Positions 24,001 to 33,000 of a DNA stretch of 64,000 bases are shown here, piece after piece. Positions within the stretch are counted from its first letter, which is position 1; each line of letters starts with the position of its first letter. Made by a program: the position numbers. This DNA comes from a virus. The stretch lies in the IMG/VR virus record IMGVR_UViG_3300013794_000014, positions 64,001-128,000 of that record; one strand, given 5' to 3'.

Positions 24001-27000
24001 TCAAGGTCATTTACATTGATACAGATTCCAACTATGTGATGTTAAGACCAGTACAAGGACAAACTATTGAAGAACAAATTTGTGGACAAATCGAAGAACA
24101 GATTTGTAAATGCATTGAACAAATATTGGAAATCTATGAGTACATTAATAGTCAGTGGGACGAACTAGTGAAAAAAGAACTAGGTGTTGATACTGAACAT
24201 TATTTCGAAATGAAAAGTGAACTATTAGCAAAAAACATGATTGTCAGTAAGAAGAAACGTTATGCAATTGCTTTAGTACTATCTGAAGCACAATTAGACG
24301 TTCTTAAGGAACTTTATCCTGATAAAGACAAGATGATTGAGTATTTGAAGTCAATATCGTTAGAACCATCTATTGAGGTTAAAGGACTTGAAGTTGTTAG
24401 ATCAGATGTTTCAGATATTGTAGTCGAAGAAATGCAAAAAATGCTTGAAGACTTATTACTTGAAAGAAAAACCCCAAGTCAATTGAGAAGAGAAATCCAA
24501 GAACTATTTGTCAAAATAAGACGTTTAGCATCAAAAGATTTGAACAAAATTGCAATACCTGTAAGATTGAACTCATGGGTTGATAAGAACGGTAAACCAA
24601 TAACAAACGCTAAAGCGTTAGCAATCAAAGAGTACAATGAAAAACATCCAGATAACCCAATTATTCTAGGTGAAAAATGTCTTATGGTTTATACGAAAGA
24701 TACAATAGGTGCTAAAGTCTGGAAAATAGGTGAAAAACCAACTGTTAAACCTTATGAGATTGATTGGAAGAAAATGTTTAAGGCGTTACTGGAAAAGAAA
24801 GCAGAAGTTTGGTATGATTTACTTTCCATTTCTAAGAATCAAAACTAAAGTAAATTAATTAAATCTGCCATATGTATGGTTGTACAGATGAAATCTGTGA
24901 AACTACGTTTGAAACAATTGAACTTACTGATGAAATAATATTCATCTGTTGAGTATTGAGCGCTGTCAAAGTAGTGGACGTGTGCATTGCCATCGTTTGT
25001 TTCAAATTATTCTCTAAACTTTGAAATCCCTGTGTAATTGAATTGGTTAATGCATTGAGACTACTTTCAAGTTTTGTTGCCAACGTATTTATCGAATCTG
25101 ATATTAACTGTCCTACAGCCTTAATAGCCTGTATCTGTTTATTCATTTGTCGTATAATAGATATCGTTGAATTTTGTATTTTCGTTACAATTGCACCCGC
25201 TGTTGAAGTGATTTCGTTTTTGATTTCAACCAATTTCTGTCCTAAGGTTGTTGTATTTTGACTTATAGCATTAGTTATCTGTACTGTATTTTCACTTAGT
25301 TTTGTAATTACTGATTCGGATTTTTGCCTTAATACATTGTATATTTGTGATAACAACTGAGTGGTTGGCTGTTTCTTCTGCTCATATTTCTGTTTATCTT
25401 GTTGTTGAGTTTGTTGTACATTATCTTGTGTTGTAGTTTGTGACTTGTCCTTATTCTGTAATTCTGTTTTAATTACATTTATGTCTACTACCATTTTCTT
25501 ATATTCCTCTAAGTAGTTAGTTTCTATTTCCTCTAGTTTTGTAATTAGTTTATCTTCAGTTTCAGATTGTTGTACTAATCCAGATAACAAGTTTGCAAGA
25601 AGCTCAATTAATACACCACCACCACCAAAAATCGGTTGTGATATAATTGATGATGATTCTTCTTCAGTTTCTGTCACATTCGTTGGTATACTTTGTTCCG
25701 ATGTACTTTGTTCTATTGCCTGTATATCCTTATAATACCGATAAGTGTCCCAACCAAGTAATGCTGCATCAATTGCAACTGAAGCTGCAGTACCAACAAC
25801 CGGTACATTAGCAACAATTCCAGAGGCTAGTTCACCAAGTGCACCTATCCAATCTCCTTCTTGCCATCTCTGATATGCAAAAATACCACTCGTTACTGTA
25901 CTAACAATTGGTATTTTCTTGAGTATACTCTTACCAGCAGCTTTTGCCGCTTGTTTTGCAGCCTGTTTTGTTGTAACGTGTGAATAAATACTTGTTCCAA
26001 GTGAAATTATATCTGATATTATATTGCCCTGGTGATATTCGTGTAGTTCCTGTACATCTTGCGGTGTTACAGCTACAGTTTCGTCTGTTGGAGATGATGG
26101 TTGTGACGTTGGATCAAATTCTAATCCTAATGATGGTGCCACAGGAATAAGTACTGGTGCTACTATCTTACCATAACGTGTCTTAAGTAATGTTCTAAAC
26201 CACCTGTTATCTGTAAGTGATCCTGCTGCTTTTGTAATAGATTCTGGTACCTGAATTTTAGGAAGTCGTATGTCTTCAAGGAAACTTTTCACCTTCCCTA
26301 TAATTCCTTTACCTTTACCTTTCTTCTTACCGCCACCTTTACCCTTACCTTTTCCTTCATCGTCATCATCCTCATCGCCCCAACCAAAGATTTTACCTAA
26401 TGCCCACTCAGCTGTTGGTTCAAGGGCCGCATAAAGCCCGTAGAGTATTCCAGATTGCCAATCACCCGATGCAAACGAATACAACGATGTAGCTGCTGCT
26501 CCAAGAGCTGATAATTTAGCACTTGTTGAAAAGAACTTTTTAAGTGCTTTTTTAATACTACCTGTTTTCTTATATTCGGTATATGCAGCTTTACCACCAC
26601 CAATTGTAGAAACAATACCAGTAGCCTGAGCTACCCTATTTATATTCTGTGAAGTTTCCATTTTACGTTTATTTTCTTTTATACGATTAACTATTTCTTC
26701 TGTGTTATCTACATTCCATTCATCTTGCCAATGTTCCACGTATGATTCAAATGTTTGTGTATCAACCACTCTAATGTTACCACTTTCATCAGCATATACA
26801 ATTATGTTCTCTTTCTTGTAAGCTGGTTCTCCCCATGGTGTTACAATTTTTTCTGCACCTGCTGTTACATTAGCTAAAAACGTATATGGATCAGCACCAA
26901 TTTGTTCAGCATATGTGTAAATGTCCATCCCTAAATCGCTTGGTAACAAGTAATCGTATTTAACCTTAGGTGTTTCAGCAAATGGTGATACAGCTGTACC

Positions 27001-30000: not shown

Positions 30001-33000
30001 ACTTGATACAGCTTTTAAGTAACTCATACCTCCTACTGGATGTAATACGTGGTAACTTGGCATTGAAGCTAATCGTACACCAATTGCTCTAGCATATGCA
30101 TAAGCGTTTGTTGGTACTTCACCGAAAATCTGATCAAGTTTCTTTTCTACTGCTTGTTCTGTTCTTCCACCCATATCACGAACACTTTGAATTGACCACA
30201 TTGACCACATCATACCTAAAGCAGACATTAGAGAGCCTACCAATGTATGAGCAAGCATTTGAACGCCACTATGTATATGTTTCAAAAACTCCGTTGCGAA
30301 CGTTGCAGTAGCATATATGTCGGCCCATTTCTCAGAAACGCCTGCATCAAGTAATTGTTGCCTTGTTTGTTTTTTAATAACCTGTAATTTATGAACAACA
30401 TCTGCACCAGGACGCTGTGCCAGCTGAGATCCAATTTGTGCACGTGCTTCCTGTACAAGTTCATTTACACGCTCAGACATCACTTCTGCTTGTTTATTTA
30501 TCTGTTCACTCGTTTTACTAAACTGTTTTTGTGCTTCTTGTAAACGTCTAGTTAATTCTGGTATCTCATCCTTCATATTACTAATAGTCTTATTCAATGC
30601 ATTAAAGTCTGCTATAATCTCACTTAAAGCATCACCTACTGAGGTTATTCTTGGTTCATTGAAGAATGGTAAATTTTGTTTAAGCGTTTCTGCAATCTCT
30701 TCTTTTGGTATTCCTAAATGCTTATGTAGTAGGTCAATGACGTCATAAATCGCCATACCTTCTGATATTTTTTCAACGTCAAATGGTACACCTACGTCTT
30801 CTGAAATTTTACTTACAACTTTACGTACTCGATCTACTTGTTGCCCTGTAATAACCCAGTTTCGTGATTCATAGACAAGTGCTTTTCGATAAATCTCATC
30901 AGCAACAGATCGTCCAAATGCTTTTTGTAACGCCTCTTTAATCGTTAAGTTTTTTCTTGTGCCATACCGTTCTTGTAGCTCCGAAATTATATCTTGCGCA
31001 TATGAACCTGCTGTCTTTAACTTAAGTCTTGTCTTAATAACGTCTTGAATTTCTGCTTTTTGCATATGTTCACGTATTACGTTGTAAAATGCAGGACCCA
31101 ACGCTTCATGTAAGAATAATGCACGAGTTAAAACCCTTTCTTGCTGTGACAATCTTGGTACTGCTAAATTTTTAGTGCCAGGAATCTCTTTCAAATCTTC
31201 TGGGTATAACATTGCAAACAAAGATAATAGTGAGTTACCGGTATTTTGTTGTTGTAGATATTCTAAATAACGTGGTATATTTGTCTGTCGTATTGTGTCT
31301 TGAAGCATTCCTAAGACTAAGTTGGTTGAAACGTGTCTCATACGTTGATTTAACCCTTCTATAATTGCTGCATGGAATGGTGCTAATTCTGGCCCAAACT
31401 GAATAAACGCATCAAGTGTTCTTGATTTCATAATTAAGTTCATTCTGTATAATTGGTTCAATAAATCCATTGTTGTCTGTACTTGCTGTAACTGTTCAAT
31501 TGCTGCTTTAGTAAAGTCAAATGAACTTAAGGCACCAGTTGTAATAGTAATAGTACGATGTTGCATCAACGGCACTGTTAATTCAACACCTTGTAATGCA
31601 TGTGCTAAATGTACACTTTTATTTGCCAAATTACCTAAATCTTTTGCAACATCATGTATACTTCTACTTGAACGGCTTGCAATTTCACCTAGTCCTTGAA
31701 TTACATCAGATAGAACAACTATATTGTCTGCAGCAATTCCAACTGCAAGTCTCAATGATTCCCTGACATTTTCGTTTGTAATGAACTCGAACGCTTTTCG
31801 TATATCTTTATCTTTTATATGCGGTATTAACTGTTCGAGGTGTGTAATATTCTTTACGTCTTCAATACCAAATTGTCTAGCTAAATGTGAAATTAAAATA
31901 CCTTCTGCAATAGTTTTCTGATTTGCAGGTAAGTTTTCGAGTACTCCAATTATAGCGGCATAAGTTGTTAAGTTTTCAAGGAAACCACCTTTACCTTCTT
32001 CTTTGATTCTTTGTAATGTGCCGTGGAAGACAGAAGCCACATCTTTTGTTTCACGAATCTTTTCAATCACTGAGGAATATATGTTGGTAGCCAACTCTAT
32101 ATTCATTGCTCCTTCTCTTGCATAACTGTTAATCCGTTCAAAATGATCCTGCATGCTCTGTAATGCTGTAACGGTTCTAATTAACCTTTCATATGTTGTA
32201 ACATGTGGTGCAGTAACCAACCTAAATCCTGAATACCAATCACCAGACATTGCAGCTGTTACATTACGTACAAGATCCTTGAATTTTTCAGAATATTCAT
32301 GCTGCAAATACTGGCCTTTTGCAATTTGCTTTATAATAGTATCCATATCAACTGCAAAGTGCTCAGATAAACCTTCTACAACCTCTGAGAATTCTTTTGT
32401 AACGACAATTGCTTGTTTTAAAGCCCTTCTGAAGTCTTCAACACTTTGTATCAATGGCCTATTTCCAACCCAAGCTTTCATTGCAGCTTCCATTATACTA
32501 CCAACTACTATTGCTTCACCTGGTTTTATTCCTGACGTTGAAGTTGCAAACTCAGAGGCATGTGCTAATAAAGTACCAGTTAAATGTTCAATAAGTGCCT
32601 TATGCTGTTTAGGTAATGATGATACATAAGTGATAGGCCCAATTGTATTCGGTGTCAATATACGTTCAACTATTTCAGCAATAGCAGTGGCTGTTACTCC
32701 GGCCGCAATACCTGCAAACGGATTTGCTGTCAGTAATCCTGTTGCTGCACCGATTGACATACCCAACAACGCTTTTAACAAGAATCCACCCTTTTTTGAA
32801 CCTCCGACTTCTACACCTAACGCTGCATAATGTTCAAATTTATCACCGCGAATTTCTTGCAATATCTTGTCTAATTGATTCATATCACCTGCGGTTATTT
32901 CCTTAATCTGTGAAATATCGTAAATTTCTGTAGCTTTTATTCCAGTTCCATGATAATGTTCTATTGCATAGAGGAACTTATTACCATGTTCCTGTTTAAG

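Follow-up and report, generated by a model that had tools for sequence, protein, structure and literature searches.

A 6,956-residue viral protein combining an RNA polymerase barrel with a tape-measure-like region: a putative injected polymerase

Introduction

A virion RNA polymerase that forms one protein with the tape measure of the tail has been proven for gp96 of the Thermus phage P23-45 and is also known from P74-26, G20c and TSP4 (Chaban et al. 2024, PMC10770324). The gp96 protein of 5002 amino acids (aa) carries an active N-terminal two-barrel RNA polymerase, transmembrane segments and an enzyme domain; it is present at full length in P23-45 virions and transcribes the pre-early genes, before a separate non-virion polymerase takes over (PMC10770324). 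P23-45 combines this 5002-aa ruler with a tail of 800 nm. The fusion was termed 'previously unsuspected' in 2024 and has been shown for one small group of Thermus phages; among the viruses that the authors list as having two polymerases, none is archaeal (PMC10770324). In N4-like (gp50) and crAss-like phages, the fusion partner of the polymerase is a large protein of unknown function and not a tape measure (PMC10770324). For archaeal viruses, the textbook view is that they depend wholly on the host polymerase (PMC5569661). Here, we analyze a giant open reading frame (ORF) of 6956 aa in a 64,000-nucleotide stretch of viral DNA, hereafter the window, which comprises bases 64001-128000 of the 141,059-bp single-contig IMG/VR virus record IMGVR_UViG_3300013794_000014. 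Positions refer to the window unless marked as genome positions.

Based on the physical character of the protein, its genomic context, the elimination of other candidates and the analogy to gp96, we consider it probable, although well short of certain, that the giant protein is an injected RNA polymerase fused to a tape measure. The idea of such a fusion is already known from P23-45 gp96.

Results

A single uninterrupted frame of 20.9 kb in a complete genome

The virus record carries direct terminal repeats according to IMG/VR and is 100% complete according to CheckV. The gene in question is the following:

24859..45729, minus strand: giant ORF, 6956 aa, a single open frame and the final gene of the minus-strand late operon

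Translation starts with TTG at 45729, located 6 nucleotides downstream of GGGTGAT, a ribosome-site motif used by this genome. The gene is convergent with the DNA polymerase B gene (ending at 24848) of the plus-strand replication block, and its operon also includes the large terminase subunit and structural genes. The 6,956-aa ORF is real. A frame of this length might be an assembly chimera or a set of separate genes run together by chance read-through, yet we found no point in support of this, and a stop-free stretch of 20.9 kb is impossible by chance in an AT-rich genome. In addition, GC content and skew are even across the whole ORF, its interior shows no strong, in-frame ribosome site accompanied by an ATG that would point to a separate C-terminal product, and the record is a complete genome bearing terminal repeats. 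An artefact is very unlikely.

The terminal repeats (genome 1-80 and 140967-141059) contain a short tandem unit of 48 bases: copies of the initial 30 bases lie at offsets 0 and 48 as well as at 140967 and 141015.

An RNA polymerase barrel and a metallophosphatase precede the C-terminal region

Three features were located in the N-terminal 4310 aa of the giant protein:

44533..45045, minus strand: RNA polymerase beta-prime-type double-psi barrel, aa 229-399 (Pfam RNA_pol_Rpb1_2, PF00623)
44548-44562, minus strand: DYDGD motif, aa 390-394, the metal-binding site of the beta-prime barrel
33157..33441, minus strand: calcineurin-like metallophosphatase, aa ~4097-4191 (Pfam PF00149, phrog_1649)

The beta-prime barrel matches PF00623 with an E-value (E) of 1.4e-7 and 32.4 bits, and with 34.1 bits in a six-frame scan, both times over the Pfam cut-off. 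Beta-like motifs are legible C-terminal of this barrel in a direct reading of the translation, and the beta-barrel profile PF00562 does not detect them. Thus, the beta-prime barrel and its DxDGD motif share one polypeptide with the tape-measure-like part, with the beta-like barrel seen as motifs only. The metallophosphatase (PF00149: E 4.7e-7, 30.9 bits, cut-off 21.5) directly precedes the first hydrophobic hairpin of the protein.

Outside the giant protein, a second metallophosphoesterase of 242 aa is free-standing (18540-19268). Two adjacent small ORFs of 297 and 302 aa (12117-13767) show weak matches to the beta-prime and beta barrels (PF00623 E 4.9e-4 and PF00562 E 2.8e-4, both below the Pfam cut-offs) and are a candidate for a miniature non-virion RNA polymerase split over two ORFs.

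Physical character of a tape measure or ejection protein in the C-terminal ~2,650 aa

The region that follows the metallophosphatase contains these features:

32659..32790, minus strand: Gly/Ala-rich, glycine-zipper-like hydrophobic hairpin, aa 4314-4357 (best 19-residue Kyte-Doolittle mean 1.6)
30190..30261, minus strand: hydrophobic segment free of charged residues, aa 5157-5180 (weakest of the four segments described initially, with a maximum of 1.21)
29599..29676, minus strand: hydrophobic segment, aa 5352-5377 (hydropathy)
29140..29271, minus strand: hydrophobic double segment, aa 5487-5530 (Kyte-Doolittle maximum 1.89, one charged residue)
28648..28743, minus strand: strongest transmembrane-like segment, aa 5663-5694 (Kyte-Doolittle maximum 2.05)
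27847..28071, minus strand: three-helix unit, aa 5887-5961 (AlphaFold2)
25672..26001, minus strand: conserved glycine-zipper block of ~90-110 aa, aa ~6577-6686 (HMMER homology)
24865..25368, minus strand: C-terminal coiled coil, aa ~6788-6955 (periodicity, long helices)

A first-pass annotation of the window had reported four hydrophobic stretches, and a Kyte-Doolittle scan recovered all four in place, together with four more at aa 5352-5377, 6233-6251, 6635-6653 and 6700-6719. The two 44-residue stretches differ in charge, with four charged residues at aa 4314-4357 and one at aa 5487-5530, and the strongest segment is free of charged residues over aa 5664-5690. Segments with a 19-residue mean of at least 1.6 number seven in the C-terminal part versus one in the 4310-aa N-terminal part, while shuffled versions of the C-terminal part contain a mean of 4.2 and a maximum of 9. 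The hydrophobic enrichment is therefore real in comparison to the rest of the protein and modest in comparison to composition.

In an AlphaFold2 model of aa 5757-6956, computed with an alignment of the glycine-zipper block supplied, ~65% of the residues are helical and only two short strands occur. The mean predicted local distance difference test score (pLDDT) is 52.9, and the confident parts are aa 5887-5961 (the three-helix unit, pLDDT 83-98), aa 6606-6676 and aa ~6800-6955. The helical nature that had been ascribed to all of the C-terminal ~2600 aa is thus supported by a model for the last 1200 aa, while aa 4311-5756 were judged by composition and periodicity only. The predicted coiled-coil end was confirmed by two agreeing lines of evidence: periodicity at 3.5-3.67 residues peaks in the last ~200 aa (1.68 versus ~0.5 elsewhere), and the same region is modelled as long helices with a pLDDT of 75-83. 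It also shows a weak Apolipoprotein-repeat match.

A Foldseek comparison of the C-terminal model with the PDB returned generic helical bundles only, and an ESM Atlas feature search with the last 2000 aa gave scores below 0.9. No internal repeats were detected in the C-terminal part; a duplicate of the glycine-zipper block, suspected by eye, was not significant (z = 0.3). Taken together, the C-terminal part is long, mostly alpha-helical, equipped with hydrophobic and glycine-zipper segments and closed by a coiled coil, which are the physical traits of a tape measure or ejection protein.

A widespread glycine-zipper block links the protein to tail-associated proteins

The core of the conserved block spans aa 6599-6657 (25759-25935), and the sequence pieces that first drew attention to it lie at aa 6599-6609, 6625-6637 and 6643-6657. 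Its helices are modelled with a pLDDT of 87-97. An exhaustive HMMER search of 1.8 billion cluster representatives, with the last 1200 aa of the protein as the query, resulted in 1466 matches at E<=1e-3; the lowest E was 2.6e-22, and none was below 1e-30. In all 150 matches listed, the best alignment falls on the block, which indicates that the block is a real, widespread module and that the remainder of the C-terminal region is an orphan.

Among the best 60 of the 1466 block bearers, PhageMin_Tail was found in three, a lysozyme domain in two and VanY in one, and at most three match any single listed tape-measure PHROG. In cultured T4-like phages, the bearer is encoded in the baseplate-hub module: in P-HM1, it lies between gp26/gp51 and gp5, and in ACP17 it adjoins a gp26-like gene. 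Judging from these families and gene neighbourhoods, the block appears typical of proteins of the tail lumen or of ejected proteins in general, and not of tape measures alone. The initial recognition of the block as one known from phage tail-length proteins holds insofar as the homology is true and some bearers are recognisable as tape measures, others being tail-associated lysins, but the recognisable tape measures form a minority. A profile built from block-bearing proteins gave low-complexity helical matches only among PDB sequences.

The giant gene ends a late operon with tail genes

The following features of the minus-strand late operon place the giant gene in a tail context:

58064..59542, minus strand: tail tube protein with an inserted domain, 492 aa (Pfam Phage_tube_2; phrog_290 E 9.7e-9)
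50891..52372, minus strand: large terminase subunit (phrog_2 E 1.7e-16), in the same operon
49239..50280, minus strand: frameshift pair, a 253-aa ORF and a ~93-aa extension in the +1 frame, with the likely shift site AAC TTT CGT TGA at 49519-49530
48206..49261, minus strand: tail-tube-fold protein of baseplate-tube or distal-tail type, 351 aa (ESM Atlas)
45798..48209, minus strand: beta-rich protein, 803 aa, directly upstream of the giant gene, without a family match

The order of the operon is tube, ligase-like, 1119-aa, terminase, 203-aa, frameshift pair, tube-fold, 803-aa and giant gene. The 492-aa protein matches Phage_tube_2 with 31.3 bits (cut-off 27) over aa 21-170, and a second collinear stretch (aa ~292-356 versus profile positions 175-227) follows an insertion. 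For the 351-aa protein, whose gene is located two genes upstream of the giant gene, ESM Atlas features are similar (0.95-0.96) to viral clusters with Baseplate_Tube_p140 or Phage_tube_2, and the structural template modelling (TM) score to Phage_tube_2 clusters is 0.58-0.61. The 803-aa protein is possibly a tail-tip or hub protein.

The +1-frame ORF of the frameshift pair begins exactly at AAC TTT CGT TGA and has neither a start codon nor a ribosome site. In two relatives (L009 and L010, ~70% nucleotide identity), the corresponding sequence is TCC TTT CAT TGA; both keep the +1-frame protein from the junction onward, and the sole Met of the reference in this part is replaced. Since the relatives retain the site together with a +1-frame protein that lacks a start, as the prediction requires, a programmed +1 shift at TTT CGT TGA is likely. 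The pair resembles a tail assembly chaperone pair, and such pairs are typical of, though not exclusive to, chaperones. The CGT codon of the site is read by a tRNA-Arg(GCG) gene in the genome (L002 10358-10435). The overlap of the 203-aa and 310-aa ORFs (50273-50451) was rejected as a frameshift signal: it is low-complexity read-through, and the second ORF most likely starts at the ATG at 50280.

According to the first-pass annotation, the giant gene follows a tail chaperone and tail genes. A frameshift pair and a tube-fold gene are indeed found upstream, but two genes intervene between the pair and the giant gene, with which the operon ends, and the terminase lies within the block.

The late operon also bears on a different explanation, in which the giant protein is made late but never enters the virion and serves as a membrane-anchored intracellular scaffold for transcription or replication. 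Transmembrane-like segments and enzyme domains would fit a membrane-bound factory equally well. The position of the gene in a late structural operon beside tail genes, the common occurrence of the block in phage tail-associated proteins and the candidate small split polymerase, which already fits a non-virion role, argue against such a scaffold, and we regard it as improbable.

No other candidate ruler was found in the complete genome

The PhageMin_Tail profile PF10145 has no match in the complete genome, and no tape-measure PHROG was found in the other scanned ORFs of at least 400 aa or in the smaller scanned ORFs of the late operon. The other large unannotated ORFs are rich in beta structure and aromatic residues or contain P-loops. 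With all other scanned ORFs eliminated, the giant protein is the sole candidate ruler, in agreement with the original remark that no other tape measure gene is evident; this applies within the sensitivity of profile searches for a very divergent virus. Profiles for the sheath (PF04984), Dit (PF05709) and Tal (PF06605) found no match in the genome either, which are weak negatives in a virus so divergent.

The giant protein itself matches phrog_167 with E 2e-8 and 33 bits in hmmscan and with E 0.18 in the six-frame scan.

Further genes of the late operon and other candidate structural genes

Next to the terminase gene, the 203-aa ORF (50273-50884) encodes a protein whose N-terminal half is rich in beta structure and whose tail, dominated by Lys and Glu, is highly charged; it has no family match. 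A 552-aa protein of the structural operon (56349-58007) contains a nucleotidyltransferase core of the ligase/capping-enzyme type (PKYNGMR motif; phrog_114 E 6.6e-14) and is distinct from the protein encoded at genome 22425-23741, which is clearly an ATP-dependent DNA ligase. None of the late-operon genes could be recognised as the portal, and the 1119-aa ORF (52980-56339) has no assigned function. Weak portal PHROG matches (E 3.7e-7) were found for the last 100 residues of a 489-aa ORF (20717-22186) between the clamp loader and DNA polymerase genes. Three plus-strand proteins of 745, 459 and 411 aa (203-3833 and genome 61609-62844) share PHROG families; the concanavalin-A-like lectin domain Laminin_G_3 is present in both members scanned by Pfam and DUF2341 in one. 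They are candidate receptor-binding proteins, encoded apart from the tail operon.

The host is likely a methanogenic archaeon

Ribosome sites of the GGTGAT type precede 37 of 116 ORFs (~2 expected), and GGAGG is nearly absent. A 478-aa ORF (genome 55548-56984; L004 1548-2984) matches NCBIfam RecJ_Meth (E 1.4e-91) and RecJ_archaeal, the clamp loader matches the archaeal RFC small subunit, the virus encodes an anaerobic ribonucleotide reductase, and one structural neighbour cluster of the 351-aa tube-fold protein consists mostly of Methanobacteriota. In combination, these sequence features make a methanogenic archaeal host likely, although unproven. Scans of GTDB genomes with the terminase alignment and with NrdD revealed no relatives.

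Relatives of the virus are known from short contigs

Relatives of the terminase (81-100% identity, IMG/VR contigs) and of the tube protein (63-67%) lie on short contigs that end before the giant gene. No relatives of the giant protein were found in IMG/VR with its N- and C-terminal parts, in metagenome contigs of the Joint Genome Institute (JGI) with its C-terminal and junction parts, or in phage records by tblastn. An index of 5.8 billion proteins contained no homologues of near length (3825-12173 aa); it also returned no shorter ones in a search that was probably swamped by low-complexity words.

Discussion

A proposed tape measure that delivers a polymerase

If the giant protein is a tape-measure-fused polymerase, it would occupy the tail lumen, its C-terminus located at the tip, and be the first to leave the tail at infection. 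Its coiled-coil end, together with the hydrophobic and glycine-zipper segments (aa ~4314-6719), would enter the host envelope and form or line a conduit for the DNA. The N-terminal two-barrel RNA polymerase would then be pulled through together with the DNA and transcribe the first-entering genes, as has been demonstrated for P23-45 gp96, and the metallophosphatase at the junction of both parts would be a co-delivered enzyme. The sequence shows the domains, the helical and hydrophobic character, the conserved block, the neighbouring tail genes and the lack of another candidate; that the protein is part of the virion, acts as a ruler, enters membranes and transcribes early genes is what we infer. 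The proposal that the polymerase is loaded and injected as part of the tape measure dates back to the first-pass annotation; it gains from the barrel, the character of the C-terminal part, the tail context and the gp96 precedent, but homology to a tape-measure family is missing. In view of the length of 6956 aa, proteolytic processing or partial storage in the head had been suggested in addition as probable; processing is not demanded by this precedent, because the virion polymerase domain of P23-45 remains within the full-length protein.

In the main alternative, the capsid would store the giant protein as cargo for ejection, as with N4 gp50 and the crAss-like giants, and a small unrecognised tape measure would be encoded elsewhere. 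Its hydrophobic C-terminal part would then aid the passage of protein and DNA across the envelope and would not be a tail ruler. Several points weigh against the tape-measure interpretation, and the first three of them favour capsid cargo. Firstly, the block, judging from its bearers, is not specific to tape measures, most of the bearers not being recognisable as such. Secondly, the gene order is non-canonical: the tube-fold and 803-aa genes precede the giant gene, where the canonical order would have them follow it, and the terminase sits between the tube gene and the giant gene. Thirdly, a convincing match to a tape-measure family is lacking, as phrog_167 is non-specific and matches all 14 control genomes. 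Moreover, the assignment of the tail type draws on profile and Atlas matches, while an alignment-free AlphaFold2 model of the 492-aa tube protein reached a pLDDT of 31, and the searches found no relatives of the giant protein.

N4-like and crAss-like phages are short-tailed and store the polymerase protein in the capsid, whereas the present virus has two tube-fold genes and a chaperone-like frameshift pair. Furthermore, its complete genome offers no alternative helical ORF of tape-measure character. Size is a further argument for capsid cargo, since an all-helical ruler of 6956 aa would imply a tail of ~1 micrometre at 0.15 nm per residue, and so is the fact that crAss-like and N4-like phages do fuse virion polymerases to large proteins of unknown function (PMC10770324). 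Nevertheless, P23-45 proves that a 5002-aa ruler with an 800-nm tail is possible. On balance, we consider storage in the capsid unlikely, yet a serious contender, and we favour the tape-measure-fused polymerase.

A more far-reaching version of this interpretation would be that a methanogen virus injects its own polymerase within a ~7,000-residue tape measure, in a tail of micrometre order, that a cellular-type polymerase with the beta-prime barrel before the beta motifs was fused independently of the Thermus-phage case, and that this would make it the first virus of archaea shown to supply a transcription enzyme of its own, contrary to the textbook view. We put this forward tentatively, as somewhat less than an even prospect.

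Significance

The searched literature contained no report of an archaeal virus whose first round of transcription is independent of the host. With a methanogen as host, the present virus would be such a case, which would revise ideas on early gene expression in archaeal viruses. A sequence-unrelated example in another virus lineage would, if true, mean that the fusion is a recurrent solution. It would also provide a second system for studying how storage with a tail tube and passage through it are achieved by a folded polymerase exceeding 1000 residues. The case is notable for its apparently independent origin and its probable archaeal host.

Comparison with known systems

Ordinary tape measures (PhageMin_Tail and hub proteins of the T4 gp29 type) resemble the giant protein in being helical and extended, in bearing glycine-zipper and hydrophobic segments towards the C-terminus and in ending with a coiled coil, and some of them have the ~90-aa block in common with it. 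In contrast, the giant protein is several times longer, its family match stops at the block, and a polymerase and a phosphatase are added. With N4-like gp50 and the crAss-like giants it has in common a polymerase inside a very large, ejected virion protein, provided that it is located in the virion as we propose, while the search of phage records revealed no sequence similarity to them.

The closest counterpart is P23-45 gp96, and three differences from it are new here: the lack of homology outside a short stretch, a metallophosphatase in place of the gp96 metallopeptidase, and the probably archaeal host. Only aa 343-403 align, to gp96 732-792 around the DxDGD motif (34% identity, pairwise E 2e-4), and the giant protein had no hit in the PDB or phage searches. 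Two further differences concern the barrel, which in the present protein agrees with the Rpb1 profile of cellular polymerases, and the gene order, which is rearranged here, whereas gp96 is encoded downstream of tube and chaperone genes, as is canonical. Since the similarity is confined to ~60 residues around DxDGD, the giant protein is an analogue of gp96 in architecture and falls outside the gp96 family. In architecture, the two compare as follows: both are single giant late proteins (5002 aa versus 6956 aa) of viruses that are long-tailed or, here, predicted to be so, and both have an N-terminal polymerase with DxDGD, the second barrel being seen as motifs only in the present case. An enzyme domain follows further along in both, hydrophobic clusters are located mid-protein and near the C-terminus, and a separate second polymerase gene accompanies gp96, for which the weakly matching 297-aa and 302-aa ORFs are the candidate counterpart in this virus.

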